Position numbers and translations under genes: made by a program. Of a stretch of DNA of 32,000 nucleotides, positions 13,546-31,300 are shown piece after piece. Origin of the DNA: Breznakia blatticola (GTDB lineage: Bacteria; Bacillota_I; Bacilli_A; Erysipelotrichales; Erysipelotrichaceae); contig NZ_SODD01000014.1 in NCBI RefSeq assembly GCF_004365815.1, forward strand, positions 13,737 to 45,736, read 5' to 3'. The notes beneath the pieces are model-generated. The model saw nothing but the letters and a program-made list of their open reading frames with translations. It was not told where the DNA came from and made no database searches. Positions within the stretch are counted from its first letter, which is position 1. Every line of letters starts with the position of its first letter.

Positions 13546-14181
13546 CTAACTTATTACATTTTCTAGATATTCATCCAATGCTTGATAAAACTGAGCAATA
13601 TGCAATCCATCAACAAGTGCATGATTACATAGTACTGTAACTGGTATTTCCACTTTACCATTTTGAGATGTATATTTCCCCCATGTAATCCGAGGATTGC
13701 TATCAGCAGGAGATGGCGTTGGATTACTTAATGCAATATAAGAAAGCCAAGGAAGACTTGAGATGAACAGTAATTCGTTTGCATCTTCTTCATCATCACT
13801 TGTACTTCTTGCTTCTCTAGCATCTTCTTGCGCCTTTATAGCATAAGGAAGATACTTTTTAAAAGGCATATTTGTTGATAATGTGCAGTAACAATACGTT
13901 CCATCCTCTAATACAACTGTATGCGATGTTTTGCAATCCGCATATTCAGCAATTCCATCATTCATTATACGTTGACGAAATTCAGGCACACTGTTTGCAG
14001 CTCTAGCCACACAATAATTAAACGTTAAAAAGAAGGGTAACTTCTTTTCTTTTACCACCTGTATAAACTTTGTAATATCTACTTGTACAGTCAATCCTAC
14101 ATATGGATTTGCCAAACTTTTGAAATATGTAAAATGATCTTTTCTTTTATATACATTCATATCTACTACTTTATAATTCAT
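13546..14181 (-). CDS. CatA-like O-acetyltransferase (chloramphenicol acetyltransferase family)
   Basis: 211 aa. N-terminal YKRKDHFTYFKS and C-terminal PVTVLCNHALVDGLHIAQFYQAL align with the CAT (V)HHAVCDGFH catalytic region. The catalytic His is retained; the preceding His is Asn. GAGGA RBS. Confidence 0.8.
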   Translation of the reverse strand: MNYKVVDMNVYKRKDHFTYFKSLANPYVGLTVQVDITKFIQVVKEKKLPFFLTFNYCVARAANSVPEFRQRIMNDGIAEYADCKTSHTVVLEDGTYCYCTLSTNMPFKKYLPYAIKAQEDAREARSTSDDEEDANELLFISSLPWLSYIALSNPTPSPADSNPRITWGKYTSQNGKVEIPVTVLCNHALVDGLHIAQFYQALDEYLENVIS

Positions 14182-14344: not shown

Positions 14345-14989
14345 CTACTTTATAACTTTTTTCCTTTCAATGAAACACTTAAGCAAGAAAATCCAAAACA
14401 ATGTCGCAACGAAAGCAGCAAGTATACCCCAAAACATCGTATTTATGGACTTATCCATTATAAATGATAGCTCATTCAATAATGAATATTCTAATTGTGA
14501 GTAGATGGTTATATCTAGCGGACAGTTCTTACCATATGTTAGTTTTTCGGCAACAAACACAAAAAGTACAATGATATAATACAATCCAACCAAATCAAAC
14601 GTTTCTTTTTCATAATATACCTTATACTCCTCTTCCGAGGACAATTTCAACTTTTGTATTTTACTTATATCATTTTTCTTAGTTTGAAAATTAATGTCTC
14701 TATATCTACCAAATAACCCCCCAATTATTGTGAAAAAGATCAAAGAATAAAGTTCCGCATTTCTCCCAAACAAATCCAACAGATTTATAATAATCCAAAT
14801 CAATAGACACGTAGTAGAAATCAAAATATCTCTCTTCGTAATTTTAGCGATGTATCTTAAAGCAATATAAACAACTAGTACAAAAATTACTAAAACAAGC
14901 ATTTTGATTATAAGATCCATAATCAATAATACATGTTCGCATATCTTTACACTTGCAAAAATCTGTTCTAACCCCTTCAGCACAAGCAT
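14345..14989 (-). CDS. Hypothetical polytopic membrane protein
   Basis: 214 aa ORF with about 5 hydrophobic helices and a central charged loop (KKNDISKIQKLKLSSEEEYKVYYEKE). No recognisable RBS at either candidate start (14989 or 14920). No family recognised. Confidence 0.5.
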   Translation of the reverse strand: MLVLKGLEQIFASVKICEHVLLIMDLIIKMLVLVIFVLVVYIALRYIAKITKRDILISTTCLLIWIIINLLDLFGRNAELYSLIFFTIIGGLFGRYRDINFQTKKNDISKIQKLKLSSEEEYKVYYEKETFDLVGLYYIIVLFVFVAEKLTYGKNCPLDITIYSQLEYSLLNELSFIMDKSINTMFWGILAAFVATLFWIFLLKCFIERKKVIK

Positions 14990-15216: not shown

Positions 15217-15246
15217 AAAGAAACACAGTTTTACCCATGTTTCTTT
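15217..15246 (-). terminator. Weak hairpin at the end of the SipW/TasA-like operon
   Basis: AAAGAAACA (15217-15225) pairs with TGTTTCTTT (15238-15246): perfect 9 bp, AT-rich, overlapping the TAA stop. Only a short T-run follows on the minus strand. Confidence 0.3.
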
Positions 15247-16189
15247 AGTCTACTTGTTGTATTGATAATTTAAAATCGAAATTCACAAATAAGTGATAAT
15301 CATTATTTGCATAGTTTCCATCTTGTGTAGCTGCCTTTGGTTTTACAAACCCTTTTGTTGCATCATGCATAACATAGACAGACGTATTATTTGTCTCATA
15401 CTCTTGCATCAGTTGTTGTAAGATTCGATCTTTCTTACATGCATCACACAACGTAGCACTTCCATCTTGTACATCAATTGTATTTAGATTTGTACCATCT
15501 ATACAGTTATCCCACTTCCATGTAAGCGTTTGGTTTTTAAGTCCGTATAGTTTTCCTAAATCTTCACCAGGTGTAAATGTAGTATCAATAAGTGCTTTAT
15601 CCATACGCTCTTTGATTGTGCCTAATGAATTTTGTGTACTTAGTGCACTGTCAAATGTTTGAATACCTTCCCCTTTTAAAGTAAAGATAACTGGCCAATA
15701 TCCATTAGTCTCTGTGACTTGTACTGCATTTTCTAACATATAGTATGTTTTTGCACTATCATATGGACCTTCATCTAAGGTACATGCATCGTTTTCACAA
15801 ACATAGTAGGTTTGTGGTACATATGTGTATTGCATAAAATCTACAGGTTTCATCATTGCCCAAAACCCATTTCCTAAGAATATATTTTGTTGGTTCAATT
15901 CATATGTCAATTCACCATCTACTTCTGGTTTTCCATCAATTGATATATGAAGTCCATCATCATTACTTTCTCCTGGTAAGACAATATTTCTACCAAGCGT
16001 GTCTTTTGTTGTAAATAATTTACCTTCAGCTGTAGCTACAGTTCCCCATAATGCAACACGCGCAGAGTTTTGATTTTCTTCTTGTGTCACATACCGACCA
16101 AGTACCCCACTTGTTATGGGTAATACAATTAATGAGGCAAGTAGTATAATTGCCACTAGTTTTTTTGCATGTTTATGTATCCAATTCAC
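15245..16189 (-). CDS. TasA/camelysin-like secreted protein with SipW-dependent-type signal peptide (paralog B, 314 aa)
   Basis: GTG start at 16189 with AGAGGT RBS 5 nt upstream, overlapping the sipW-1 stop by 17 nt. N-terminus KKLVAIILLASLIVLPITSGVLG-RYVTQEENQNSARVALWG. Shares ordered motifs with the 361-aa protein: VLPGESND, GKPEVDG, YWPVIFTL, LTWKWD and a C-terminal FDFKLSIQQVD. Confidence 0.7.
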   Translation of the reverse strand: MNWIHKHAKKLVAIILLASLIVLPITSGVLGRYVTQEENQNSARVALWGTVATAEGKLFTTKDTLGRNIVLPGESNDDGLHISIDGKPEVDGELTYELNQQNIFLGNGFWAMMKPVDFMQYTYVPQTYYVCENDACTLDEGPYDSAKTYYMLENAVQVTETNGYWPVIFTLKGEGIQTFDSALSTQNSLGTIKERMDKALIDTTFTPGEDLGKLYGLKNQTLTWKWDNCIDGTNLNTIDVQDGSATLCDACKKDRILQQLMQEYETNNTSVYVMHDATKGFVKPKAATQDGNYANNDYHLFVNFDFKLSIQQVD

Positions 16190-16766
16190 TGCTTACCTCT
16201 CTTTCCGCTTTCGCTTGCTTTAATCTTTCTATTTCTAAACGGACCGTTTCAAGATCCTCTTGTTTGATTTGCTTTTCTTTTGCATATGACATTTCTAATA
16301 ATAGAAATGCTAACAACAATACGCTTATGGTTCCAAGTGGATGTTTCATCACATTGATAATCGCTCCAACAAAAGGAATACTACAAATGACTTTCCCTTT
16401 GATGTTTTCCTTTGTGATTGGATCATCAACCATTCCATTTGCATCACCTTTGGTGTAAATATTATCTTCATCTATACTTACAACACGATGAACGATAAGT
16501 TCATACCCATCTTGATACACCACAATATCATCAATAGATACATTTGTTGTATCTTTCACGATAATAAGATCATCTTTTTCTAATGCAGGTTGCATACTTC
16601 CCGATAACACAACGGATGCACCATAACCAAATGGAGTTGGTAGTGCATTACCTACGATGGACTGTGCATTATATAAATACACAGTAAATCCAATATAGAT
16701 TCCAACAATGATAAGAATTGGTGTACGCAAAATGCGTGATTTTCTACTCTTCATCATGTTCTCCAT
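16173..16766 (-). CDS. sipW: Signal peptidase I, archaeal/ER type (SipW-like), copy 1
   Basis: 197 aa. N-terminal TM, catalytic Ser box VVLSGSMQP, His box LIVHRVV, TKGDAN motif, second TM, then a charged coiled-coil tail. The start could be 16766, 16757 or 16754 (GGAG precedes the ATGATG pair). Overlaps the 3' end of the upstream gene. Confidence 0.85.
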   Translation of the reverse strand: MENMMKSRKSRILRTPILIIVGIYIGFTVYLYNAQSIVGNALPTPFGYGASVVLSGSMQPALEKDDLIIVKDTTNVSIDDIVVYQDGYELIVHRVVSIDEDNIYTKGDANGMVDDPITKENIKGKVICSIPFVGAIINVMKHPLGTISVLLLAFLLLEMSYAKEKQIKQEDLETVRLEIERLKQAKAEREVSSELDT

Positions 16767-17628
16767 CTTTCTTCTTTTTCCAAATTATGCATGCTACAAG
16801 TACAACAGCAATTCCACCTAACATAAGATAATACATTACATTTGTTGTATCTCCGGTGTTTGGATTACGTAGTCCACCATCCGCAATTTGTGAATTTTCA
16901 TCACTCCATGCATAGGTACGAATCACGACAGTTACAGTTAAGTCTTCATCGACTGCACGATTGCCTAAATAGGTATCAAAGTCATCATCACCTTGTTCAA
17001 ATGGCCATTCCCAAAACAATGTGTAATACGCATAGTTTTTAGCATACAGACTAGCTTCATCACGAATAAAACTGCCCTTTGCTAGACGCTCCATTCCTTG
17101 ATCACTACCTAAAAGATAGTCACCAGTATAACTTTTCATCGCAATGTTTACAGGGAAATCAACATCACTTGGACTTGTTAGTACTTCACAGGTCATTTGA
17201 TATTTTACAGTAGTTGATCCATTATTTTTGATATGAAAGGTGTACTCATTTTCTGTTCCTGGAGCGATTACTTCTTCTCCATTTGAACTTACTACGCTTA
17301 CTTTTCCATCATCATTTGTATATGTAAGCTTAAAAATTTCAACATCTGTTTCTGTTGACCAAGTTTGTTTATTATCAAAGGTTTCAATCCCCTCTGTATT
17401 TTGTTGTGTTCCTACCCCATTGGCATTGTTTGTAATTGCAATAGATGAACTACCGCCTTCATCGTTTGTTTCATCAGATTCCACTGCAACTGATGGAAAC
17501 AATGAAATTGCTTCTTTTTCAATCTGTGATATGTAAATAAGATGATTTCCTATCACACTTACTGTAATTGCAACACAGATGAAAAGCACACATACCAATA
17601 GCCAAATCTTTCCTTTTCTATTTTGCAT
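16744..17628 (-). CDS. Diverged TasA-like paralog with C-terminal sorting-like anchor (294 aa)
   Basis: N-terminal TM (IWLLVCVLFICVAITVSVIG), acidic linker and TasA-like core motifs (VIAPGTENEYTFHIKNNGSTTVKY; YYTLFWEWPFEQGDDDFDTYLGN). C-terminus NPNTGDTT, then a TM (LMLGGIAVVLVACIIW), then KKKK. AAAGGAG RBS. Confidence 0.7.
   Translation of the reverse strand: MQNRKGKIWLLVCVLFICVAITVSVIGNHLIYISQIEKEAISLFPSVAVESDETNDEGGSSSIAITNNANGVGTQQNTEGIETFDNKQTWSTETDVEIFKLTYTNDDGKVSVVSSNGEEVIAPGTENEYTFHIKNNGSTTVKYQMTCEVLTSPSDVDFPVNIAMKSYTGDYLLGSDQGMERLAKGSFIRDEASLYAKNYAYYTLFWEWPFEQGDDDFDTYLGNRAVDEDLTVTVVIRTYAWSDENSQIADGGLRNPNTGDTTNVMYYLMLGGIAVVLVACIIWKKKKDGEHDEE
16747..16866 (-). other. C-terminal sorting-like signal of the 294-aa protein
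   Basis: NPNTGDTTNVMYY-LMLGGIAVVLVACIIW-KKKKDGEHDEE. Confidence 0.5.
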
Positions 17629-17684
17629 AGTTCTCCTTTTAAAGAAGCAACAAACAATCTGTCAATTGTTTGCTATTTCTTTAA

Positions 17685-17716
17685 ATATAGCCCTTAGCGC
17701 ATACCAAGGGCTATAT
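17685..17716 (-). terminator. Hairpin 16 nt after the 361-aa gene stop; candidate partial terminator or attenuator
   Basis: Minus strand ATATAGCCCTT-ggtatgcgct-AAGGGCTATAT, a perfect 11 bp stem. Only TT follows, then AAAG. A second imperfect hairpin lies at 17646-17674, just before the next RBS. Confidence 0.4.
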
Positions 17717-17731
17717 AACATAAACTATAAA

Positions 17732-18817
17732 CTAGTCTCTTTGAGTTATAGTAAGGTTTAAATTAAACATCACTTTAAATGATGATGGACCAAATGGTTT
17801 CCCTAAATATGCACCGTCTAATCCTTTTTCTTTCATAAACTCACCTTGCATCCCATTAAATCCTGTTGAAGCAAAGCAATTTACATCAAAATCAGTATCT
17901 CCTCTATTTGCTGCCATTACATTTCCAATCATGGTATCTACTTTATCGTATTTTCCGTTTGTAGTTGAATCGTCATGTGTAAATGCCCACTCCCATGTGA
18001 TTTTAGGCAATGCAGCTTGGCTTAGGTCAGTACCTGATTCAAAATTTACACCTGAAGTCTTATAAACAGCGTTAAACTTATTTGCAATCAGTTCTAGCGT
18101 ATCTTGTTGGTATGCACTCGCCCCTGTAGGGTTTGTAAATCCATTCCAATCTGTTCCATCTTGGTTCGTCATTTTAAATGTAATCGGATAATAGTCTGGA
18201 CCTGCGTTTCCATCTGATTTTTCCAAGTTTGCAATTTCTACAGCTTCATAAAAAACATCACCATCTTTTGTGTATCCATTTGTTTTCGCATAGTAACTAT
18301 CGCTATCTCTAAGAACATATAAATCATATTCGCCTGAATACGCTTTATACTCCGCTTCTGTAGATATACTTGTTTTTTTCATTTGAAAATACTTATCACC
18401 TCGAATACGGAAATTTTGTGTTTTCAATTCTCCAGTAATAACACCATCAACCTCTGGTGTTCCTGTTAAATTCAAATTAAACGTATCATTTTTTGTTCCT
18501 GGTGCCAGTACATTATCTCTAGTCTTATCAGAGTTAGCTAATGCTGATACACTAATCGAGTTATCAGTTACATCAGTTGTAATTGTATTTCCATTCGCTG
18601 CATCTTTGTAGTCTGTTCCAAAGATATTATTGTCAGCGGTCATCACAACACCCCATTTAGCAACACGTGCAGTATTTTCACCAACTGCTGTTGTAGTGTA
18701 TTTTGCGAAAGTTCCACTTACAATCGCTGTTGTTAATAATGTAACAACTAATAATCCTGATGCAAGACGCATCGATTTATTCTTTTTTAATTCTTTTTTC
18801 GTTTTCAAATTGTTCAT
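17732..18817 (-). CDS. TasA/camelysin-like secreted protein with SipW-dependent-type signal peptide (paralog A, 361 aa)
   Basis: N-terminus KKNKSMRLASGLLVVTLLTTAIVSGTFA-KYTTTAVGENTARVAKWG resembles the GGGTFAYF/GGGTWAAF SipW-cognate signals of camelysin and TasA. VLAPGTKNDTFNLNLTG resembles the TasA KPGD...NxG core. Sits directly downstream of sipW-2. Confidence 0.75.
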   Translation of the reverse strand: MNNLKTKKELKKNKSMRLASGLLVVTLLTTAIVSGTFAKYTTTAVGENTARVAKWGVVMTADNNIFGTDYKDAANGNTITTDVTDNSISVSALANSDKTRDNVLAPGTKNDTFNLNLTGTPEVDGVITGELKTQNFRIRGDKYFQMKKTSISTEAEYKAYSGEYDLYVLRDSDSYYAKTNGYTKDGDVFYEAVEIANLEKSDGNAGPDYYPITFKMTNQDGTDWNGFTNPTGASAYQQDTLELIANKFNAVYKTSGVNFESGTDLSQAALPKITWEWAFTHDDSTTNGKYDKVDTMIGNVMAANRGDTDFDVNCFASTGFNGMQGEFMKEKGLDGAYLGKPFGPSSFKVMFNLNLTITQRD

Positions 18818-18914
18818 CTAATCTTTTTTCCTCCTATTAAACATACATCCTTTACTCTTTAAACTATATATTTCACTGTTTTGTTGTGGAGCAAAACAGG
18901 TGAAACCACACTAA

Positions 18915-19562
18915 TTACTTATCTTCTTTAGATTGTTCTGCTTTTAGCTTTTCTAGTTCTGCTAAAAGTGCTTCAGTTTCATTAGCACTTGCTTTTTCAA
19001 AACCTTTTCTTCTAAAGATGTCATATCCGACAAGTAAGAATAATGGAACAACAACACAGACAATCAAACCTTGTGTTGTTTGCATAAACATTGCAATGTT
19101 CCCTGCACCACCAATACGGAAATCATAAATTCCAACTAAGTTTTGTTCTGGTATTGGATCTGCATCATTTGTATTATTGGCATCCCCTTTTGTGATAAAT
19201 GCCAATTTCCCTTCTACATCTTGTATTTCAACTACACGGTGAGTTACAACTGCATTTTTTTCGCTTTTTGGATCAAAGTAAGTAATAATATCTCCTACTT
19301 TAACTTTCTTCGCATCTGTCACATTACAGATAATTAAATCACCTGATTGAATCTCAGGGTACATCGAATCCGTTAACACAATCATTGGTGCTATTCCACC
19401 AATACTTGGTACTTTTTCCGGTTCTGTATAACTCTTAACTATTAATGTCACATTGATAATCAATATCGGAATTAAGATGATACTCATAATAATTCCTACA
19501 ATCGTCAACACTTTGTGCTTTGTCGATGTATTTTTCATTTTCTTTGTTTTCAATTCGCTCAT
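18915..19562 (-). CDS. sipW: Signal peptidase I, archaeal/ER type (SipW-like), copy 2
   Basis: 215 aa. N-terminal TM, Ser box MIVLTDSMYP, His box VVTHRVV, TKGDANN motif, second TM (LIVCVVVPLFLLVGY), then tail ETEALLAELEKLKAEQSKEDK. Confidence 0.85.
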   Translation of the reverse strand: MSELKTKKMKNTSTKHKVLTIVGIIMSIILIPILIINVTLIVKSYTEPEKVPSIGGIAPMIVLTDSMYPEIQSGDLIICNVTDAKKVKVGDIITYFDPKSEKNAVVTHRVVEIQDVEGKLAFITKGDANNTNDADPIPEQNLVGIYDFRIGGAGNIAMFMQTTQGLIVCVVVPLFLLVGYDIFRRKGFEKASANETEALLAELEKLKAEQSKEDK

Positions 19563-19770: not shown

Positions 19771-19800
19771 ATTTTAAAATTATTATATATAAACTGTCAA
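19771..19800 (-). promoter_or_regulatory. Sigma-A type promoter for the sipW-2 operon, leaving a leader of about 200 nt
   Basis: Minus strand TTGACA (19795-19800), 18 nt spacer, TAAAAT (19771-19776). Confidence 0.45.
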
Positions 19801-19915: not shown

Positions 19916-22900
19916 CTAATTTTCAGTCTTATAAAGTGATCGCACCTTATTCCGTATTAATAACGCAACACTAACTGCTGCCATAAATAGCGTAAGCAAT
20001 AATTTCGATGCACTACTTGTATCACCAGTTTCAATTGATGGTTTTGAATTTGGTGTTTGATTTGAATTAGCACTTCCATTTGGTTTTGAATCTTTTGATG
20101 GTAAATTAGCACTTGGTTTATCTGGTGTATTACCACCTTCATTTGGCAGACTATTACAAACATCTATTTTACGATATACCGCTGTGAATGTTGTGCTTTC
20201 TTCCATATTCATTTTTGCGATATCTTCGCTTGAATATACACTTGACGATCCATTCATCGACCATCCAATATGTTCATAGTTTTCATTACTCTTTACTGAT
20301 GGAACATAGGACACTTGATTTCCAAATACTACTTGTTCGTTCATCGTATTTGTTGTATTACCAGAAGCATCTACTAAGATTCCTTGTTCTCCTTGTTCAA
20401 ACACGACAAGCAGTTCATCTGCACTCCATGTTGCTGTATAAACAGTTGTACTACCTGCTTTTCCAAAGACTTTTGTAGGTTCTACATCCCATCCTGTAAA
20501 TGCGAATCCTTTTTTCGTTACTTCTGGAACCTCATAAGCTTTTCCAGGTTTTCCTTCTACGTAACTTCCAAATGCTCCTTGTGAATCAACTCCACCATCG
20601 TACATAAAGATTACCGTTGCATTGTCTACTTCTTCATACTGCGCAACAAATTCAGAATTTTTTGTAATCTTCATTTTTGCAATATCTTCACTAGCATATA
20701 ACGTACTTGAACCATTTAAAGACCATCCTTTAAATGTATGTCCCTCGTATACTTTAATCTCCGGCACATATGTTACTGTATCTTGATATTTCACGTCTTC
20801 TGCATATGTATCAATTTTTGCATCGTCCGCATCAAACATATCTCCATATTCACCTGGTAGGAATGTTACTTCAAGAGATGATGTTTCCCAAATTGCTGTA
20901 TAAACACTTGTGCTACCAGCACTGCCAAATACTAATGTAGGCTGTTTATCCCACCCAGCAAACGTATAGCCGTCTTTTATGATTGAAGGTGATATATACG
21001 CTGTTCCTGGTTTCCCAACGATTACACTCATATATTCTAAGTTATCGTCAACTCCACCTTTATAATCAAAGATAACTGTTACTTCGCCAATCTCTTCATA
21101 AATTGCAGTAAATACCACATTACCTGTGACTTTTAGATCGTTAACTTCATCACTTGTGTATAATATTTCACTTCCATCTTTTGACCAACCAACAAACTTG
21201 TATGAAGCATCAGATGTCACTGATGGAACAAAGGTAATTTTTTCTTTGTATACTACCCTTGTTTCCACTGTATCAACAGTATCATTTGCTTCATTTGTTA
21301 GTACACCATGTTCTCCTTTTTCAAAGGTAACTTTGTATGAAATTGGTGTCCACTGTGCATGATAAATACTTATACTATTTGCTTCACCAAACACTAATGT
21401 TGGAGTTTCATTCCATCCATCAAATTCATAACCTGTTCTTGTTGGAACTGGTGTAGCATATGCTGTCCCTGGTTTTCCATTGATTGTCTTCATGAATTTT
21501 GAGTCATCATCTAATCCACCATTGTAGTTAAAGATAACTGTTGCATTATCTATTTCTTTATATACTGCAGTGAATGTCACATCTTCAGTTACGTTGTATT
21601 TCTCAATCGCTTCATTAGAATAGATTTTCCCAGTGCCCGCGTGTTTCCAACCAACAAATTCATAATTTGTATTTGCCGTAACACCTGGCACAAACGTGAC
21701 TGTATCACTAATTTTTACTTTTTCTGATACTGTAGAGGCCGTATCTCCCGTTTTATTGCTGAGTGTACCATTATCTCCTTGTTTGAATGTTACGTTATAT
21801 GATAATCGTTTCCATTGTGCTGTGTAAATTGTTGTACTTCCTGCATCACCAAATTTCTTAGTTGGCTCTACATTCCAACCGATGAATTCATAACCTTCCT
21901 TCGTAACTGAAGGAACTGTATAGGTTTCATTTGGTTCACCACTTACAATTGTAATCTTCTCATCATTATCATCAATTCCACCATCATAGTTAAATATGAC
22001 TGTCGCCGTTCCGTTTTTCTCCCAAACAGCTGTATATGTTTTATTACCAACAATTGGTTGTTTGTCCATTGCTTTTGGGTAAATAATTGCTCCATATGCT
22101 TTATCTTCCCATCCCACTAAACGATAACCTTCTCTTATTACTTGTTTGTAGTCTGGAGTTGGATTCATTGCAGTTTCATAATCACCTAAAGTTTCATAGT
22201 CTGTCACTTGTGTCCATTTTACATCTGCTTCAGAACCTGCAATATTTCCACCATTCAAATCATATGTAATATCAGCAACTACTACTTGATCGTATACCAT
22301 TAAATCAAAATGTGTATTGGTAGTATTTCCTACTGTATTGCCACCTATACTTCCCGTACCTGCATTATAGAATACTTCTTTTGCACCACTTCCATCATAA
22401 TACGTTCCACGTATAGCTACTCGATAAAATTCGTCTCCAGAACATGTTTGTGTCACTTGTCTAAAACTTCTTAGATCCTGCTCACTACGTATTTTAATTT
22501 CGTTTATTTTTGTTAGTTTACTAAACCCATCAGTATAATCATAGTTACGAGTACCATTCGTTAAGAAACACGAACCACCCATTGCAACTGTTTGAATATC
22601 TATCCAGTAATATTCAAACTCAACATATCCACCTGTTAAACTTCCAGACTCACTCAAAAGAAGTGGATGATAAACGTCGACTCCAACTTTCTGATTTCCA
22701 TTTTGTAATTGAACATTAAGATCATATGTAATATTTCCTGTTCCTATTGCGTCAACAATTTGACCATTTACCGTAGGCTTAATTACAGGTTCGATTGGAT
22801 ACACTCCAGGCGTTAGAGCTACAACTCCAGCTGCATCAAGATATGTCCCAGATAATATATCTGTCGTTTCTACTTTTTTTGCTGTGTCCTTATATAACCA

Positions 22901-24004
22901 CTTCGCTTGATATCCAGCTGATAGTGTTACACCATCAAGCGAAGGTAATGTATACGCTGTGTTGACTTCCCAAAAAGAAGTTGTTGTATTTTTCGTATAC
23001 TGAAGTGATTGATTATATAGTTTCTTTTCGCTACTTAGTACTGTTCCATTTGTATCTTGTGCTTGAAGTTCTACTTCATATGTAAATTGCTTCTTTAAAT
23101 TTGCATCAGTTCCTGAAAGCGCATTTACTCTATCAAACTCAGACTTATTTGAAAAAACAACCATGCTGTTTGCAACCGCAGAAGAACTCGTACCGCTTAT
23201 ATTAAAAGATGTAGATGTATAGGAAGCCCCAACTGTTTCACTTATGATTTGAACACTTTTGAATGGACTAATCGTATTTATTTTAAACGCTTCATTTCCC
23301 ACAGAAGTAACTGTACTTGGAATCGCAAAAAACACTGAACTTCCATCTTGTATCATCTGAAAAGAAAATGCGTTATTACCGATTGTCACCAATTTAGACG
23401 GTAAAGTAATGGCTGAAGTTGTGGTTTTTCCGTTGACCTTTATATATTCTACTGCACCAATGGAACCTAATGCTAACTCGCCAATAAACGTAATATTATC
23501 TGACAGAGTAATTTGCTTCAAACCAGTTTGATGCAAGGCTTTTGTTTGTAATGTTGTCACGCTATCCGACATCTCTAAAGATGTCATTTGATACTGTGCA
23601 TTAAACGCGCTTGAGTTGATTGTAGTTAATTTTGTTGGTTGTGTCATATCTGTCTTTGTAATTGTATATGGCATGTATGAGCCAGTCCAACCTGGAACGC
23701 TTCCATTTCTTGCAAATGCAAACGAACCTATAGACACTACTTTCGAACCATTAATTTCATCTGGAATTGTTAGTTCCACATCTTTTAGGGTAGATTCACT
23801 ACCAGCAACCGAAATGTACCAACTTTTGTTCAAAGAGGTAATCTCTATCCCTCCTGATACACTTCTATAATTAAACACACTGCTAGCACTATAGTCTGAT
23901 GTTTTAATCACATCAGCACTTGCTCGTATTGATTGCTGTTCAACAGTGAAAATCGCTGCAAATGCAATAACCACTGCAAGTGCAACACTTATAATCTTTT
24001 TCAT
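19916..24004 (-). CDS. Giant surface adhesin: Sec signal peptide, BspA-type leucine-rich repeats, Listeria-Bacteroides (InlB B-repeat/Flg_new) repeats, C-terminal sorting-like anchor (1362 aa)
   Basis: MKKIISVALAVVIAFAAIFTVEQQSIRASA-DV signal. LRR_5-like segments (LTIPDEINGSKVVSIGSFAFA, ITLSDNITFIGELALGS, ITLPSKLVTIGNNAFS). Repeats carry the ...GG...P..TKEGYEFIGW signature. C-terminus SIETGDTSSASK, then a TM, then RNKVR. Confidence 0.85.
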   Translation of the reverse strand: MKKIISVALAVVIAFAAIFTVEQQSIRASADVIKTSDYSASSVFNYRSVSGGIEITSLNKSWYISVAGSESTLKDVELTIPDEINGSKVVSIGSFAFARNGSVPGWTGSYMPYTITKTDMTQPTKLTTINSSAFNAQYQMTSLEMSDSVTTLQTKALHQTGLKQITLSDNITFIGELALGSIGAVEYIKVNGKTTTSAITLPSKLVTIGNNAFSFQMIQDGSSVFFAIPSTVTSVGNEAFKINTISPFKSVQIISETVGASYTSTSFNISGTSSSAVANSMVVFSNKSEFDRVNALSGTDANLKKQFTYEVELQAQDTNGTVLSSEKKLYNQSLQYTKNTTTSFWEVNTAYTLPSLDGVTLSAGYQAKWLYKDTAKKVETTDILSGTYLDAAGVVALTPGVYPIEPVIKPTVNGQIVDAIGTGNITYDLNVQLQNGNQKVGVDVYHPLLLSESGSLTGGYVEFEYYWIDIQTVAMGGSCFLTNGTRNYDYTDGFSKLTKINEIKIRSEQDLRSFRQVTQTCSGDEFYRVAIRGTYYDGSGAKEVFYNAGTGSIGGNTVGNTTNTHFDLMVYDQVVVADITYDLNGGNIAGSEADVKWTQVTDYETLGDYETAMNPTPDYKQVIREGYRLVGWEDKAYGAIIYPKAMDKQPIVGNKTYTAVWEKNGTATVIFNYDGGIDDNDEKITIVSGEPNETYTVPSVTKEGYEFIGWNVEPTKKFGDAGSTTIYTAQWKRLSYNVTFKQGDNGTLSNKTGDTASTVSEKVKISDTVTFVPGVTANTNYEFVGWKHAGTGKIYSNEAIEKYNVTEDVTFTAVYKEIDNATVIFNYNGGLDDDSKFMKTINGKPGTAYATPVPTRTGYEFDGWNETPTLVFGEANSISIYHAQWTPISYKVTFEKGEHGVLTNEANDTVDTVETRVVYKEKITFVPSVTSDASYKFVGWSKDGSEILYTSDEVNDLKVTGNVVFTAIYEEIGEVTVIFDYKGGVDDNLEYMSVIVGKPGTAYISPSIIKDGYTFAGWDKQPTLVFGSAGSTSVYTAIWETSSLEVTFLPGEYGDMFDADDAKIDTYAEDVKYQDTVTYVPEIKVYEGHTFKGWSLNGSSTLYASEDIAKMKITKNSEFVAQYEEVDNATVIFMYDGGVDSQGAFGSYVEGKPGKAYEVPEVTKKGFAFTGWDVEPTKVFGKAGSTTVYTATWSADELLVVFEQGEQGILVDASGNTTNTMNEQVVFGNQVSYVPSVKSNENYEHIGWSMNGSSSVYSSEDIAKMNMEESTTFTAVYRKIDVCNSLPNEGGNTPDKPSANLPSKDSKPNGSANSNQTPNSKPSIETGDTSSASKLLLTLFMAAVSVALLIRNKVRSLYKTEN
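19919..20032 (-). other. C-terminal sorting-like signal of the 1362-aa protein
   Basis: (SI)ETGDTSSASK-LLLTLFMAAVSVALLI-RNKVRSLYKTEN. Confidence 0.5.
20162..22006 (-). repeat. Four in-frame tandem repeats of about 154 aa (about 462 bp), each a pair of Listeria-Bacteroides repeat domains
   Basis: Units start ATVIFNYDGG (aa 667), ATVIFNYNGG (821), VTVIFDYKGG (975) and ATVIFMYDGG (1129). Each ends ...FTAVYKEID / FTAIYEEIG / FVAQYEEVD / FTAVYRKID. A fifth, degenerate single repeat precedes them (ADITYDLNGG..., aa 577-665). Confidence 0.85.
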
Positions 24005-24213: not shown

Positions 24214-27200
24214 TTATTTTTTAGAACGTTTTATTTTACTCCATCCAAATCCACCTAGAGCAAGTACTGCTACTAGTCCAAGCAACAAATACACGTTTAC
24301 ATCAGTAGTATCTCCTGAATTCACTGTGTTGCTAGTTGCAACATTAGGTTTACTGTCTTCTGGTAGTTTCTCATATTGTGCAATAAATGTTACATCTTCT
24401 GTGATCAACATTTGTTTAACTTTCTCACTACTGTATACATCTTCAGTTCCTTTAAGCAACCAACCTACAAACTTGTATCTTTCGTTTGGCTTTACAACTG
24501 GAACATATGAGACAGATGTGTTGAATAACACACGCTCATCAATTGTTACCGCTTCCTTATTATCATCGCCAACCAAAATACCACTGTCACCTTTTTCAAA
24601 TACAACCTGGTAATCATCACGCTCGCACTTCCATGCACCAGCAAAAATATAGTTACTGTTTTCAAGCGTTGTACTAGTTGTACTCCACCCTTGGAATATC
24701 CAACGGTCTTCTCCGATTACAATCGGATCACTACTAAATTCTGTAGCGTGTACTGTTGTTCCTGTTCTAAATGCACCTAATGCTTCTGGCGCCATATTCT
24801 TAATACTTTCAGGAAGTTCTTTTCCTTTTGTAACACTTACAAATTCATGATATGCATAGTATCTATTTAATTTCGGATGATTTTTTGCAGCTATTTTATC
24901 TCCAACAACACTAGCAGTTACTGGAAGATTACCCGTTGCATCTTCTTTTCCATCCCTTAGTTTTAGTTGTACTGTAACTGAATTTACTGTACCACTTTTA
25001 GCTTCAACGATATCCCAAATCAGTTTATTTCCTTCAATTCTTGCTGAACTATTTTCAGTAAGAACATCTATATCAGCATCTGTACCACTCAAGAAGTCAA
25101 AGTATTTTGATAAATCCACTTCTACTTGAGATGTAATCGGAAGTTCATCTTCATTAATATACTGAATCGCTTCTGATAGAAGTTCTGTAAATTCGTTGTC
25201 ATCTTTTGCAAGATAGAATGTTTCGTTATCAAATGAAATATCTTTCAAGTTCTTTTCGTATTCTGCTTCAATTGAAGCAATACCAAGAGGATATACCCTG
25301 ACACCTGCATCACGTAAAATTGCAGCTTCAGCCACACCATCACATTCTTCTTTTGGAAGTTTTGTTCCATCTTCTAACTTAACATTTGGAATTCCATCAG
25401 TTATGAAAATAATAACTGCTTCTCTACTTGTATCTTCTCTATTATCAATCAATTCTTTTGCCGCAAGCAAACCTTCCGAGTAATTTGTATAATTACTTTC
25501 AATCAACGTTCTTTTTTCTGCTCTTAACGCATCTCCATCTTCAAGGAATCCATCTGTACTCCATAATGAATCTGTTCCAAAAGCTGTTAAAGCGATTCTA
25601 TTGTCGTATCCTTCACCATTTTTTTCCAAAATCATATCATATGCATCAGATAAAATATCTTCCATAATTAATGATCTAGGATACTTATCATCTGTACCCG
25701 AAATGTTTTTTGGAACTAGCATAGAATCACTATAATCGAGCACGAATACATAATCTAGTCTCGTATTTAATTTAGAACGTGCAAAATCCACACGAAGTTC
25801 TGCTTCATTTAAAGCATCATTTGTCCACTTCGCAGAAGACTGCAGCATTACATCTCCACTATAGTTTTGCGCAGTACTTTCATATCCACTAACCTCAGGA
25901 TATCCAACCGGAGGTGTATTAACATCTGGAAGGCTTCCTGTTAATGTCATTAATTTTTTATGAATAACATTAGATATACCCAAACATCCCTCATACGCAC
26001 GTCCATGGAAAGTTTTTATTGTTTCTGGAATAACTAGTTCTCCAGTGAAATCACAAAATGCAAAAATATATATTCCTGAAATATGTTCAACATTTTCACC
26101 GAAGGACAAAGTTCCAGTAAACCCGCTTTCATAAAAGATGGATCTTTCTGTCAAGTCACAATCTACAAATAAGTTTCGTGGTTTAACTGTCGCATTTTTA
26201 CCAAACTGATGAAACGCTGCTTCTCCGACATACTCTATACTAGAAGGTAATGCCAAATCCCCAGTAAACTTTGTCATTGCAAATGCATAATGCCCAATTG
26301 TTTTTACTGCATTTCCAAGCGTTAATGTTCCTGTAAATCCACTTTCTCGAAACGCGGCAATTTCATCAAGATTACAGTTTACTGTTAAATTGTTTAGACT
26401 TCCAACTGTTCCAAATTTTTCAAATGCAAACTCTCCAACATATGTCAAAGTCTCAGGTAAAACTAAGTCTCCACTAAATGACGTTGCCCCTCTGAACGAT
26501 TGCTTTGCAAGAGTCTTTACAGAGTTACCAATTGTTAGTGTTCCTGTAAATCCACTTTCTTGAAACACGGCAGTTTCATCAAGATTACAGTTTACTGTTA
26601 AATTGTTTGGTCTTCCAACTGTTCCAAATTGATAGAACGCCCATGATTTTACTAAACTAAGAGTTGAAGGAAGCACTAAATCTCCTGTAAACCCTGTTGC
26701 CTGATAGAAACTTTGCGTTTCAATAGTTTTTACACTTTCACCAATCGTTAACGCACCTGTAAATCCACTACGATAAAAAACAGCTGGTTTAGACAAATCA
26801 CAATTTACTGTTAAGTTTCCTGGTTTTCCATTAACTCCAAACTCTCTAAACGCGTACGTTCCAACACCTTTAACTGTGGAAGGTAGTACTAAATCTCCTG
26901 TAGCGTTTTTCACTTGGCGAAAAGCCTCTGTTCCAATATACGCTACGTTTGGCCCAAAGGTCACTTTTCCATTGATATTTGCACTTTGAAAGACATTTGA
27001 CTTTGGAAGTGAACAATTTATATCAACATTTTGCACCTTCCCATAATACCCAAAATAATAAAATGCGTACTTATTGACTAAAGTTACTGTACTAGGAAGA
27101 ACAAAATCTCCTGTAAACCCTGTATAGCTAAAACTATACTCACCAATATCCTTTACCTCAGGACCAATAGTTAATGAACCTGTAAAAACGCTGCCATAAA

Positions 27201-27999
27201 ATGCTTGCTCAGATATCGTTTCACTATTTACTGTCACGTTCCCATTAATCGGCTTTTTATAACTACCAAAACAATAAAATGCATAGTCTCCAACTTTCTT
27301 CACTGTACTAGGAATTACGATGTCTCCTGTAAATCCATTTACAAGAGTAAATGCATAGTCTTCAATTTCAGTAATTGTTGAAGGAAATACAAGGCTTCCA
27401 GTAAAAGTCCTTCCAGTATCTTTATAGAAGGCCATCGCACCAATTTTAGTTACTGTATATTCTTCACCATCTGTTGTTGCTAAAACTTTTGATGGAATCA
27501 CCAAATCTCCAGCATATGCAGCATCTTTTGTTCCCGTTACTGTTGCTGTCTTAGTACCATCTGTTGAAAATGTATATGTTAATACACTATCAGCTTCTGC
27601 TACAACCCCAGTTCTTGGTTGAACTTTTCTAGCCACATCACCCGTGTTGACTTGTTTAACTTTTGCACCTTCTTTTGATTCTTCTACATTGTTTTCACTT
27701 TGTGATGAATCTTGTGCATCCGTCTTTTCTTCATATTCTTTTATCTCATCTTCTAGTGCTGGAATTTCTATTGGTTCATCAACTATTTCTTCCTCCACTA
27801 TAACAATCTCTTCTGCTGTTTCCGATTCACCAAGAGTACTTCCATTTTCTGGAGTACCTTCTTCTTGTGGATTCTCTTCAACCACTTCCTCATTCGCTTT
27901 ACCCATTACTGAATAGTTACTTACTTGCCCTATTACCACAAACATAATAATTGCTACCGTAAATAGCTTGCGAATAAAACTACTTTGCGTTCGTTTCAT
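24214..27999 (-). CDS. Giant surface adhesin: signal peptide, acidic linker, BspA-type LRR array, vWFA domain, Ig-like region, one Listeria-Bacteroides repeat, C-terminal sorting-like anchor (1261 aa)
   Basis: N-terminal KLFTVAIIMFVVIGQV signal or anchor. Glu-rich region aa 36-115. About seven 70-aa LRR units. MIDAS DYSDS. C-terminus NTVNSGDTTDVNVY, then a TM, then KIKRSKK. AAAGGAAAG RBS. Confidence 0.85.
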   Translation of the reverse strand: MKRTQSSFIRKLFTVAIIMFVVIGQVSNYSVMGKANEEVVEENPQEEGTPENGSTLGESETAEEIVIVEEEIVDEPIEIPALEDEIKEYEEKTDAQDSSQSENNVEESKEGAKVKQVNTGDVARKVQPRTGVVAEADSVLTYTFSTDGTKTATVTGTKDAAYAGDLVIPSKVLATTDGEEYTVTKIGAMAFYKDTGRTFTGSLVFPSTITEIEDYAFTLVNGFTGDIVIPSTVKKVGDYAFYCFGSYKKPINGNVTVNSETISEQAFYGSVFTGSLTIGPEVKDIGEYSFSYTGFTGDFVLPSTVTLVNKYAFYYFGYYGKVQNVDINCSLPKSNVFQSANINGKVTFGPNVAYIGTEAFRQVKNATGDLVLPSTVKGVGTYAFREFGVNGKPGNLTVNCDLSKPAVFYRSGFTGALTIGESVKTIETQSFYQATGFTGDLVLPSTLSLVKSWAFYQFGTVGRPNNLTVNCNLDETAVFQESGFTGTLTIGNSVKTLAKQSFRGATSFSGDLVLPETLTYVGEFAFEKFGTVGSLNNLTVNCNLDEIAAFRESGFTGTLTLGNAVKTIGHYAFAMTKFTGDLALPSSIEYVGEAAFHQFGKNATVKPRNLFVDCDLTERSIFYESGFTGTLSFGENVEHISGIYIFAFCDFTGELVIPETIKTFHGRAYEGCLGISNVIHKKLMTLTGSLPDVNTPPVGYPEVSGYESTAQNYSGDVMLQSSAKWTNDALNEAELRVDFARSKLNTRLDYVFVLDYSDSMLVPKNISGTDDKYPRSLIMEDILSDAYDMILEKNGEGYDNRIALTAFGTDSLWSTDGFLEDGDALRAEKRTLIESNYTNYSEGLLAAKELIDNREDTSREAVIIFITDGIPNVKLEDGTKLPKEECDGVAEAAILRDAGVRVYPLGIASIEAEYEKNLKDISFDNETFYLAKDDNEFTELLSEAIQYINEDELPITSQVEVDLSKYFDFLSGTDADIDVLTENSSARIEGNKLIWDIVEAKSGTVNSVTVQLKLRDGKEDATGNLPVTASVVGDKIAAKNHPKLNRYYAYHEFVSVTKGKELPESIKNMAPEALGAFRTGTTVHATEFSSDPIVIGEDRWIFQGWSTTSTTLENSNYIFAGAWKCERDDYQVVFEKGDSGILVGDDNKEAVTIDERVLFNTSVSYVPVVKPNERYKFVGWLLKGTEDVYSSEKVKQMLITEDVTFIAQYEKLPEDSKPNVATSNTVNSGDTTDVNVYLLLGLVAVLALGGFGWSKIKRSKK
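24217..24324 (-). other. C-terminal sorting-like signal of the 1261-aa protein
   Basis: VNSGDTTDVNVY-LLLGLVAVLALGGFGW-SKIKRSKK. Confidence 0.5.
25255..25758 (-). other. von Willebrand factor A domain with intact MIDAS, inside the 1261-aa protein
   Basis: YVFVLDYSDSM contains DxSxS (GAT TAT AGT GAT TCT = rc of 25723-25737). Downstream are RIALTAFGTDS and AVIIFITDGIPN, in the usual vWFA order. Confidence 0.7.
25960..27522 (-). repeat. Array of about seven 70-aa BspA-type LRR units (coding repeat)
   Basis: Recurring FTGDLVLPSTxxxVxxxAFxxFG...NLTVNCxLxxxxVFxxSGFTGxLTIGxSVKTIxxxxF between aa 160 and 680. Confidence 0.75.
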
Positions 28000-28370: not shown

Positions 28371-31300
28371 CTATTTGTTTGTACGTCTTCTTCTTGTGAA
28401 GATTGCAATACCAGCAAGAGAGATTAATAGTAATGCCATCATTTCATTAATTGTTGATGATAAATTAACTCCTGTTGCAGGATCACCTGATGTATCTTTG
28501 TCTTTATCTTTACCTGGTGTTGATGGATTTGCTTTTACTTCTTCTTTGATTGTTACTTTCACTTGTCCAACAACAACTTCAAGATCTTCTTCACTAACAA
28601 GCATTCTTGCTGCTTTAGCAGAAGTAGGACTTGTTAATACTAAGTCAAGAATTACATCTTCTCCAGCTTTTGCATTTTTTAAAGCATCCATGTTTTTGAT
28701 GTATACAGGTAAATCTGTAATTCCATCTAAATAATCATCTTTCCAAGCTTTCGCTCCTGCTTTATTAATAATAAATGCTTCAACTGTTCCATCTTCAATG
28801 TGTGAAGTTAATTCACTCATTTCTAATGTAATGTCATTTCCTTCAATATAGTAAAGTGCTTTTCTCACGATATTCACTTGTACTGTTTTAGTTGTAACAT
28901 TATCAACTGAATCAGTTACTGTAATTGTTACAAGGAATGGTTTAATTTCTTTTAAATCTTCAGGGTTGAAGTCAACTTTAGCAAAGTCAGAAGTAACAGT
29001 TGGTGCTAATAATGAATTATCACTTACTACTAATCCGATTTGTTCGAAGAATTCTGCTTCAGTTACTTCGCTTTCTGCACGATATGAAATAGTTACTAAG
29101 TCACTATCAACAACTGGTGCAGTTGTATCAATTACATTTACTGTAATATCAATTGATGTTGTATTTCCTGTTGGATCAGTTACATATAATGTAATTACCG
29201 TTCCATCTTTGATTACACTTGTATCTAAGTCAGCAAAGTTTGTAGCTTTTACGTTTACATCTGCTAAGACATCATTATCTTCAGCTTTTGTAACATTTAC
29301 TGCTTTTAAGAAATCTTCATAAGTTACTTCTGTATTCACTTCAAATTCAACAGTTTCATTTTCAACTTCAAACGTTGGATCTGTTGTATCTGTTACTGTT
29401 ACAGTAACTGAAAGTGATGTAGAGTTTCCTGTTTTGTCAGTTACAGTTAATGTAATCACTGTTCCTGTTTCATCCACTACATCTAAATCAATATCTTTGA
29501 AATCAACTGATGTGATTTCTAGGTCATCAGTAGATGCTGGGTCATTATCTGACTTTGTGATTGTTCCAAGTTGGTCAAGTACATCTTGAAGTGTTGAATC
29601 ACTTGATAATTCTAATCTTGCTTCATCATTTTCAATTGTAAATTCTGGATCAGTTGTATCAACAACTTTTACAGTTACCTCTACAGTTGCTGTTAGTCCA
29701 GCTTTATCTTCAACATATAATGTTACTTTTGTACCATCTTCATTAACTACACCTTGTTTTAAATCTTTAAAGTCAGCAGATTTAACTTCAAGTGGTTTAG
29801 AACCTTCATCATTATCATTAGATACTGCATTTAATGCTGTAGTTAAATCAGCAAGAGTAATTGTATCTCCTACTTCTAATACATATTCTTTAGTATCTAC
29901 TGTTAATGTAGGTACAGTTGTATCTTCAACTTTCACTTTAATTGTTACTGATTTTTTGTTACCTGTTGGGTCTGTTACAGTTAACGTAACATCTTTTCCT
30001 ACTTTATCAACACGAGTTTGATCAACTTTAGCAAAATCAGAGTAATCAATTGTTTTCACCATCGCTGGATCATTATCTTCGATTGTAATTTTTCCAAGTA
30101 GTGATTCTAATTCAGCAGCTGTAGTTACAACACCCGCTTCAATTGTAATATCTTTTTTCTCAACATCGAATGTTGGTTTTGTAGTATCAGATACCGTTAA
30201 TTCAACTGGAAGTGATGTAAAGTTTCCAGATTTATCAGTCACAGTTACATAAATAGTTGTAACACTTGGTTCATCTAAATTAATACTTCCAAATTCAGCA
30301 GATGTAATATCCATGCTATTTGTAGATGCTAGATCATTATCTGATTTTGTAATTGTTCCAAGTTGATCAATTACATCTTGAAGTGTTGAGTTCTTTCCTA
30401 ATTCCAATCTTGCTTTATTTTTCTCGATTGTGAATTTTGGATCAGTTGTATCAACAACTTTCACAACTACATCAGTAGTTGCTTTGTAACCTGAATTGTC
30501 AGCTACATAAAGAATAACAGTTGTACCGTTTTTGTTAACTTCATCTTGTTTTAGTTTTGTAAAGTTGTCTGATTTAATTTCTAGTGTAGATCCTTTATCA
30601 TTGTCACTTGCTGTAACACCAGATGCACTAATTAAATCAGCTAAACCAATAGTTTTTCCAACTTCCAATACGTAGTCATCTTTAGTTTTAGATAATGTAG
30701 GTGCTTGTGTATCTCCTACCTTAACTTTTACAGTTACGCTAGATGGATTGTTTGAAGCATCTTTTACAGTTAAGATAATATCTTTTCCTGTTTTATCTAC
30801 TTTTGTTTGATCTAGACTTGCAAATGCAGTTGACTCAATTTGTCCAGCATATGCTTTATCGTTATCTGTGTTTGTAATAGTACCTAAGTATTTAGTAACA
30901 AACGCATCTAAATCAATGTTTTCACTAGCTTCAATTGTTACTGTTTTGTTTTCTACATCAAATGTAGGAGCAGTTGTATCTTCAACTTTCACAAGTACTT
31001 CTTGTTTAGTTTCTAATCCTGCTGCATCTGTAACAAAGAATACTACTTTTTTACCTACTGTATCAACTTCATCTTGTTTAATATCACCAAAGTTTTTCGC
31101 TTGAATTGTCATAGGTAATGAGTTTGGATTATTGTCATCAATCACAACATCACTTAACAACGCTGCAACATCCGCAACTGTATACTTATCAGCTGCTCCT
31201 AATTCAAGGATTAACTCTTTTGTTGATGTTGTAAATGTAGGGACTGTTTTATCTTCAACAGTAAATGCAATTTGTTTCTCTACACTATTACCATCACTAT

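Follow-up and report, generated by a model that had tools for sequence, protein, structure and literature searches.

The window analysed here, a stretch of 32,000 nucleotides from contig NZ_SODD01000014.1 of the insect-gut bacterium Breznakia blatticola, contains a cassette of five genes in the order sipW-A, MAJ1, ANC, sipW-B and MAJ2. They encode two signal peptidases of the endoplasmic reticulum (ER)/archaeal type, two paralogous secreted proteins, and a more remote relative of these that carries a sortase signal. The cassette is widespread in gut Firmicutes and has no name, and we conclude that it most likely builds a cell-wall-anchored surface fibre. The sequence analysis shows which genes the cassette holds and how widely it is conserved, as well as the catalytic residues, the paralogy of the secreted proteins, the anchor signal and the RNA structure.

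The initial annotation of the window described five co-oriented genes in the order sipW, 361-amino-acid protein, 294-amino-acid protein, sipW, 314-amino-acid protein. All five open reading frames (ORFs) were confirmed, and all lie on the minus strand. MAJ1 and ANC have matches of 100% identity among Breznakia proteins. They are sipW-A (18915..19562, 215 aa, previously called sipW-2), which encodes an ER/archaeal-type signal peptidase I; MAJ1 (17732..18817, 361 aa), the presumed major subunit; ANC (16744..17628, 294 aa), the anchored relative; sipW-B (16173..16766, previously sipW-1), which encodes 197 aa, or 193 aa if translation starts from Met5 at 16754; and MAJ2 (15245..16189, 314 aa), the second paralog, which has a GTG start and a GAGAGG ribosome-binding site. 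The motifs quoted earlier are all present in the translations (SGSM/TDSM, HRVV, GDAN, SGTFA-KY, SGVLG-RY, ARVA[KL]WG, G[TK]PEVDG, YYPITF/YWPVIF, ITWEW/LTWKW, and the C-terminal ...TQRD/...QQVD). The overlaps of 23 nucleotides between ANC and sipW-B and 17 nucleotides between sipW-B and MAJ2 hold for the longest ORFs, but the first shrinks to 11 nucleotides with the Met5 start, which is favoured by a GGAG ribosome-binding site and is also the public gene call. sipW-B overlaps both the stop codon of ANC and the start codon of MAJ2, and these overlaps uphold the suggestion that the last three genes are tightly coupled. The GC content is flat across the window (0.30-0.37), and a foreign island was rejected on this ground.

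Both peptidases exceed the cut-off of 51.85 bits for TIGR02228 (112.7 bits for sipW-A and 72.9 for sipW-B), and the catalytic Ser, His and Asp residues are intact in each: Ser66, His108, Asp127 and Asp133 in sipW-A, and Ser57, His93, Asp108 and Asp114 in sipW-B. They are thus genuine SipW-type peptidases, as had been proposed. Both miss the cut-off of 190 bits for NF046067, the Bacillus SipW equivalog (98.3 and 67 bits). Judged by sequence, they are the same type of enzyme as B. subtilis SipW, but not its orthologs. sipW-A has hydrophobic segments at the N- and C-terminus and a charged cytoplasmic tail. The catalytic columns are kept in 85-98% of 48 sipW-A orthologs and in 94-100% of 48 sipW-B orthologs.

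The two peptidases of the window are 32% identical across 161 aligned residues. In the clade analysis the SipW-A and SipW-B types are reciprocally monophyletic (48/0 and 48/0), and each clade spans all sampled families. Identity is 57% within the SipW-A clade, 47% within the SipW-B clade and 25% between them, yet the two types always co-occur, which indicates two maintained, non-redundant functions. The twin peptidase is therefore an ancient and maintained feature, with two clean clades that both keep their catalytic residues. Beyond the second hydrophobic segment, both clades also retain a cytoplasmic tail that is charged and heptad-like, with a conserved L..EL..L pattern (16173..16290 in sipW-B and 18915..19010 in sipW-A, minus strand). 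The C-terminal tail of B. subtilis SipW has a signalling role that is independent of its peptidase activity.

The 361- and 314-amino-acid proteins had been called clear paralogs, and this is borne out both by BLASTP (E=1e-15, 30% identity), where the similarity is limited to the N-terminal third of about 130 residues, and by an hhalign comparison of the two family profiles (99.6%, E 3e-24). Cleavage is predicted between A38 and K39 in MAJ1 (SGTFA-KYTT) and between G31 and R32 in MAJ2 (SGVLG-RYVT). The conserved features of MAJ1 are an ARVAKWGV strand, APGTKN, GTPEVDG, YYPITF, ITWEWAF, DTxxGN and a C-terminal ITQRD; MAJ2 has ARVALWG, GKPEVDG, LTWKW and a C-terminal IQQVD. In MAJ1, residues K39, Y40, T42, A50, R51, A53, K54, W55 and G56 are invariant or nearly so. 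The AlphaFold2 model of the MAJ1 monomer (predicted local distance difference test, pLDDT, 83.7; predicted template modelling score, pTM, 0.77) is rich in β structure, with residues 34-47 disordered. The conserved segment K39-G56 is disordered or weakly packed in this model, which is typical of an intermolecular strand. In both proteins conservation is highest at the two ends, in the new N-terminus and the last C-terminal strand, and not in a surface pocket.

No sorting signal, pilin motif, or FctA/SpaA domain (Pfam) was found in MAJ1 or MAJ2, which end in ...TQRD and ...QQVD with no hydrophobic tail, and a sortase therefore cannot polymerise them. Searches of 53 members of the MAJ family against Pfam and NCBIfam gave only weak matches to DUF4179 (22/53), which probably reflect the signal-anchor region. 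The MAJ1 family also contains a near-invariant K54 in the presumed donor strand, an invariant E122 (in PEVDG), an invariant D294 and a conserved C-terminal Q359-x-D361. MAJ2 has Leu in place of K54. By analogy with BsaA, an intermolecular isopeptide lock in MAJ1 is conceivable. MAJ2 is about 100 residues longer in Breznakia than its usual length of about 204 aa, and long versions also occur in three related loci (L004, L009 and L010). It contains five cysteines (VCENDAC, DNCID, LCDAC), an uncommon feature in a protein that an anaerobe secretes.

In ANC an N-terminal signal/anchor helix is followed by a disordered linker (49-85) and a jelly-roll core (89-242); the sorting motif comes next, ahead of a transmembrane segment and the KKKK tail. 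Its C-terminus reads NPNTGD-TTNVMYYLMLGGIAVVLVACIIW-KKKK and scores 17.6 bits against the LPXTG-anchor model TIGR01167 (cut-off 15.9). The earlier proposal of three related secreted proteins, one of them anchored to the wall, is upheld. The relationship of ANC to the other two is weak in pairwise BLAST (E 0.002-0.004). Comparison of the ANC and MAJ1 families with hhalign gives 97.6% (E 4e-12), over only 40 columns around APGTxN, and the two consensus sequences also share WxW[AP]F...DTxLGN. At this level of similarity, ANC is a remote relative of MAJ1 and MAJ2. Of 48 ANC orthologs, 26 end in PxTGD, the family consensus, followed by a transmembrane segment and a charged tail, while some of the others have only a transmembrane anchor. 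In Foldseek, the AlphaFold2 model of ANC (pLDDT 75) matches generic jelly-rolls (E ~1e-4), and its core keeps company with carbohydrate-binding modules, ephrin-receptor ligand-binding domains and protease C-terminal jelly-rolls.

The layout of the operon is consistent with a need for more of the major subunit than of the products downstream. The 103-nucleotide gap after MAJ1 has a minimum free energy of -39.2 kcal/mol (z = -7.09 against 200 dinucleotide shuffles). Two strong stem-loops lie in it (17639..17716, minus strand; 17716..17685 and 17684..17639), and an AAGGAG ribosome-binding site comes after them. Of 46 related loci, 41 also show strong structure at this place (median z -4.3). The hairpins are presumed to be an attenuator or an mRNA-stabilising element, and their conservation implies an excess of MAJ1. 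The best promoter-like site, TTGACA-18-TAAAAT (19771..19800, minus strand), lies in the 353-nucleotide gap between the last adhesin gene and sipW-A and is identified only as an 11/12 match to the consensus. Directly after the MAJ2 stop codon is a terminator-like hairpin with a U-rich tail (15219..15244, minus strand; z = -3.06 for the region), which likely marks the end of the operon; it is weak, and was not flagged by a scan for consensus terminators.

The cassette is not peculiar to Breznakia. MAJ relatives were found in 438 of 185,579 species genomes scanned, using patterns taken from the MAJ1 consensus, so that this sample favours conserved members. An exhaustive profile search (E<=1e-3) places 5,168 clusters at 50% identity in the MAJ1 family. 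The members listed are named only 'hypothetical protein' in their sources, and the family has no annotation. The same five-gene order occurs in Oscillospiraceae, Lachnospiraceae, Ruminococcus, Christensenellaceae and Erysipelotrichaceae. It is also present in the nearest metagenomic relative and in several Oscillospiraceae genomes; the two peptidases of an Oscillospiraceae cassette pass TIGR02228 as well (98.7 and 91.4 bits).

A survey of 82 non-redundant loci with home-made hidden Markov models (HMMs) was made for the sipW-x-x-sipW-x arrangement, and showed that it recurs in several Firmicutes families. The full order SIP-MAJ-ANC-SIP-MAJ is present in 47/82 loci, or 51 if four with divergent fifth genes are added. 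Most of the incomplete loci, about 20, are truncated where a contig stops. In six others SIP-MAJ-ANC-SIP is intact but a fifth gene could not be detected, and L019, L033, L058 and L060 show a variant order or a fusion. Median distances are -4 nucleotides from ANC to sipW-B and +19 from sipW-B to MAJ2. The initial annotation had called the module duplicated. As a local event this does not stand: the twin-peptidase layout is ancient, with two separate peptidase clades, and defines the cassette across Firmicutes families.

Some individual loci deserve mention. In Clostridium sp. AM22-11AC (L019:11641-13191), a single ORF of 516 aa encodes both a SipW-B-type domain (residues 2-134) and, in the same frame, a MAJ2-like protein (LARYSG...SAKVAAF...); this is either a natural fusion that supports the pairing of SipW-B with MAJ2, or an artefact of assembly or frameshift. 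L058 contains a 618-aa ORF that the ANC model and the SIP model each match. Outside Breznakia, the genome that matches best is that of a named isolate from another genus, Aequitasia blattaphilus PAL113 (L010); its MAJ2 is long too, a hint of lateral transfer of the cassette between lineages. Hominibacterium faecale SF3 is a further cultured carrier. Two cassettes were found in RGIG4003 (L016 and L077) and two in Candidatus Alloscillospira (L037 and L043), in each case within one metagenome-assembled genome, and some organisms therefore carry more than one copy.

Our proposal is that the five genes form one operon which builds a cell-wall-anchored, heteromeric surface fibre with no pilus-polymerising sortase, and we give it about an even chance of being right in this full form. 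We infer the cleavage sites, the pairing of peptidases with substrates, polymerisation and the roles of the subunits as follows. Each secreted protein would leave the cell with an uncleaved N-terminal signal anchor, and the two dedicated peptidases would cut after the small residue in S-G-x-[FLY]-[AG]/[KR]-Y-x-T (the slash marks the cut). SipW-A would most likely serve MAJ1, while SipW-B would most likely serve ANC and MAJ2, the genes that it overlaps; the in-frame fusion in Clostridium sp. AM22-11AC, if natural, supports the pairing of SipW-B with MAJ2. The freed N-terminal segment (KYTT...ARVAKWGV) would then insert as a donor strand into the β-sandwich of a neighbouring subunit, as in TasA, BsaA and the archaeal bundling pili. 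MAJ1 would form the shaft, and the hairpins that follow its gene would bring about its excess, either by attenuating transcription or by stabilising the mRNA upstream of them. The PxTGD signal of ANC would be joined to peptidoglycan by a sortase encoded elsewhere in Breznakia, making ANC the base or nucleator of the fibre and a covalently anchored counterpart of TapA, and MAJ2 would be a minor subunit, acting as initiator, adaptor or cap. A fibre is suggested by the conserved and disordered N-terminus, the anchor, the implied excess of MAJ1, the genomic company of the cassette and its parallel with the bsa operon of C. perfringens, together with the jelly-roll core of ANC and the APGTxN and WxW..DTxLGN motifs common to ANC and MAJ1.

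Several results weigh against a fibre. The initial annotation had compared the secreted proteins to TasA, but that they are 'TasA-like' is not demonstrated: none of the three window proteins or the 53 MAJ family members matched PF12389, TIGR04088, TIGR04089 or TIGR04090 at E<=1. In the same library TasA itself scores 38 bits against the TIGR04088 cut-off of 19, and true TasA relatives all carry PF12389. As to the SipW-cognate style of signal, the motifs SGTFA-KY and SGVLG-RY are present but the signal region of MAJ and ANC has no match to TIGR04088; the likeness is at the level of the motif only (GTFA/KY in MAJ1, GTWA/AF in TasA). In the mature domains, HMM and profile searches detected no homology to TasA, camelysin or BsaA. 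In sequence searches of the PDB, neither the three proteins nor the two family profiles retrieved a relevant match. Structural comparison gave no more support. The MAJ1 model has no Foldseek neighbour in the PDB at E<0.5, and the highest TM-scores, to two archaeal filament subunits, the Natrinema Tafi pilus (9p0a) and TLP-1a (9ikj), are non-significant (E ~2, probability 0.03-0.04). TasA is not among the best 50 matches of the ANC model, and the TasA structures 8AUR and 5OF1, which were in the PDB searched, are absent among the MAJ1 and ANC matches listed. The models were submitted at full length, including the signal helices, which lowers TM-scores. Jelly-roll domains are, moreover, equally common in non-polymeric binding modules. 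Finally, no sortase gene was found within the window or in 10 kb upstream in the sister contig, a search that did not extend to the remaining Breznakia genome.

We also built a 35-member TasA profile, having verified the TasA sequence against 8AUR and 5OF1. The MAJ1 family aligns to it at 13% (E 0.0022), through the signal peptide only, and ANC at 2%. A BsaA-like control, however, reaches only 11.7%, although the literature regards BsaA as a remote homolog of TasA, so that the test is without power and cannot decide superfamily membership. A link between MAJ and the BsaA-like proteins encoded near related cassettes was considered and rejected, since the alignment is confined to the signal peptide (45.7%) and a short strand at the C-terminus (80.6%). 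We do not file the MAJ and ANC proteins as members of the TasA/camelysin group.

The main rival to a fibre is a non-polymeric surface complex of fixed stoichiometry, in which ANC is a jelly-roll binding module, MAJ1 and MAJ2 are its docking partners or ligand-binding proteins, and the peptidases simply mature unusual signal anchors. The carbohydrate-binding, ephrin-receptor ligand-binding and protease jelly-rolls matched by the ANC core would suit such a complex, as would the lack of any significant structural or HMM link to a known filament subunit. There is also a precedent in C. perfringens BsaB, a TasA-like paralog which forms only dimers (PMC11580942). Against such a complex, the conserved hairpins imply that MAJ1 is needed in large excess, and the conservation of MAJ1 and MAJ2 peaks at the new N-terminus and the C-terminal strand rather than in a surface pocket. 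The genetic logic is moreover that of known fibre operons. We regard a non-polymeric complex as rather less likely than a fibre.

Less probable again is that MAJ1 is a very divergent member of the TasA/BsaA superfamily which forms a shed biofilm-matrix scaffold, with ANC only a minor tether. hhalign pairs the MAJ1 signal and GTFAKY with TasA GGTWAAF (E 0.002-0.009), and the MAJ1 sequence APGTxNxYxFxLxNxG with TasA LKPGDxxxxxFxFxNNGS. The BsaA-like control scores no better than MAJ1, and the profile test is thus no argument against membership; proteins with a weak BsaA-family match occur in related loci. Against this, 0/53 members match PF12389, TIGR04088 or TIGR04090 even at E<=1, neither 8AUR nor 5OF1 is among the structural matches listed, and an anchored paralog is kept in almost every locus, which favours attachment over shedding. 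It is highly improbable that a sipW-tasA pair was recently duplicated in tandem in Breznakia to give redundant peptidases: the gene order does resemble two peptidase-substrate pairs, but the peptidases are only 32% identical and fall into two clades, both with members from every family sampled, Oscillospiraceae, Lachnospiraceae and others share the order, and the GC content is flat, so that the clade analysis and the conserved order in the 82-locus survey refute it.

The proposed fibre can be compared with several known systems. A close parallel is the bsa operon; according to PMC11580942, the genes found in most C. perfringens strains are sipW, bsaA and two that are bsaB-like, the first of them bearing an LPXTG motif and the second adjacent to srtB. 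In both systems a SipW-type peptidase comes first, then a major secreted subunit, a paralog with a sortase signal and a further paralog. Both have a class B sortase nearby (for the cassette, in related loci), large VWA/adhesin proteins in the neighbourhood and an adjacent two-component regulator. The bsa operon has one peptidase, whereas the Breznakia-type cassette has two that are ancient and co-conserved. The cassette subunits are also larger (361 and 314 aa), have no match to TIGR04090 or PF12389, and do not allow the N-E-K isopeptide triad to be mapped onto them, and the cassette is known from its genes alone.

With the tapA-sipW-tasA operon of B. subtilis and sipW-tasA-calY of B. cereus, the cassette shares a dedicated signal peptidase of the ER/archaeal type, a conserved N-terminal strand that comes after a signal with G-T-[FW]-A at its end, and a β-rich core. 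An accessory protein is also common to the cassette and the B. subtilis operon, where TapA nucleates and tethers the fibre. The attachment of TapA is however not covalent, whereas ANC carries a signal for sortase; the cassette signal fails TIGR04088, and homology of the mature domains is undetectable. In the tasA operons the major-subunit gene ends the operon, but in the cassette it is followed by conserved hairpins and more genes. Sortase-assembled pili of the SpaA/FctA type resemble the cassette in having a wall-anchored base subunit with a sorting signal, a protein of the signal peptidase family in the locus, and adhesins nearby. The S. pyogenes FCT loci encode SipA/LepA, a peptidase-like chaperone, and SipA is a bacterial-type protein without catalytic residues. 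By contrast, the cassette peptidases are of the ER/archaeal type and catalytically intact by sequence, and MAJ1 and MAJ2 lack a sorting signal, pilin motif and FctA/SpaA domain. Archaeal donor-strand filaments include the bundling pili AbpA, the Tat-dependent Tafi pili and the cannulae (PMC9245690, PMC12337348). The assembly proposed for the cassette would resemble theirs in its chaperone-free donation of a strand by the N-terminal segment. They differ in their secretion routes, they have neither sortase anchoring nor a twin peptidase, and the MAJ1 matches to them are non-significant. A more ambitious and more tentative suggestion, for which we think the chances somewhat poorer than even, is that the cassette represents a third route to a Gram-positive pilus, with subunits unrelated or very distantly related to TasA, two substrate-specific peptidases, donor-strand complementation, a sortase-anchored paralog and, in most gut Clostridia, presentation of a giant adhesin encoded downstream.

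In the window, three giant adhesin genes lie upstream of sipW-A on the minus strand, as the initial annotation had noted. They encode a BspA-type leucine-rich repeat (LRR) protein with Listeria-Bacteroides repeats (19916..24004), an LRR protein with VWA and SHIRT domains (24214..27999), and a Big_2/SdrD_B protein (28371..31826). All three have ordinary Sec signals and sorting signals of their own, and are neighbours rather than demonstrated parts of the module. At their C-termini an xx[TS]GD-type motif (IETGD, VNSGD, TSGD/PATG) precedes a hydrophobic segment and a tail of basic residues. The unusual NPNTGD of ANC is of the same style, which suggests that ANC and the three adhesins may be served by one shared non-canonical sortase.

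The flanks of related loci were surveyed where a complete cassette had 7 kb or more of sequence downstream of it, which was so in 29 cases. A giant adhesin, here any protein of at least 1,000 aa, is encoded downstream in 23/29, a small protein with a weak match to the BsaA family occurs in 15/29, and a class B sortase in 8/29. A 189-aa protein of related loci matches TIGR04090 with E 2.6e-7 and 30.6 bits, against a cut-off of 60. A WSWR motif prompted the idea that the giants encoded downstream in related loci are tip adhesins with a terminal pilin domain like that of MAJ or ANC; this was rejected, as hmmsearch and hhalign found nothing (probability <1%). In one Lachnospiraceae locus (L022:13407-18146), the downstream giant begins not with an ordinary Sec signal but with a MAJ-type signal, GLQGIKAKYTTSVSVRG, and at least this one giant adhesin may be a substrate of the same peptidases.

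Oscillospiraceae cassettes (L005-L008:6808-8807; L089:1-1911) are preceded by a divergent LytTR response regulator and a HATPase_c_5 kinase, an Agr-like pair, and in Breznakia an OmpR-type regulator and a 454-aa protein are encoded upstream of the adhesin genes. These regulator genes recall bsaRS of C. perfringens. Downstream of the cassette is a gene for a multi-pass membrane protein with a weak Acyl_transf_3 match (14345..14989, minus strand), which is 214 aa long from the first ATG and 246 aa in the sister strain (L001:13734-14474), the difference being due to a frame difference near the 5' end. It was rejected as a member of the operon, as it is not conserved in related loci and lies beyond the terminator-like hairpin. 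A chloramphenicol acetyltransferase gene (PF00302 CAT; 13546..14181, minus strand) lies between the cassette and pth-mfd.

The arrangement had been put forward as undescribed, and we found no account of it in the literature searched: searches for SipW with these taxa, and for archaeal-type signal peptidase with sortase and pilus, returned no description of the family or of a twin-peptidase cassette. In PMC11580942, gene-neighbourhood surveys did note BsaA/TasA paralogs beside LPxTG proteins, signal peptidases and sortases. The five families could now receive models and names in annotation. The two side-by-side signal peptidases in one operon are a test case for how substrate specificity is acquired. 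Should the cassette indeed produce a fibre, two assembly principles hitherto regarded as distinct, that of the SipW-dependent strand-exchange fibres and that of anchoring by sortase, would be combined in it. Little is known of the surface structures of the Clostridia that dominate gut and rumen (Oscillospiraceae, Lachnospiraceae, Ruminococcus), and the cassette is present in at least 438 species genomes.

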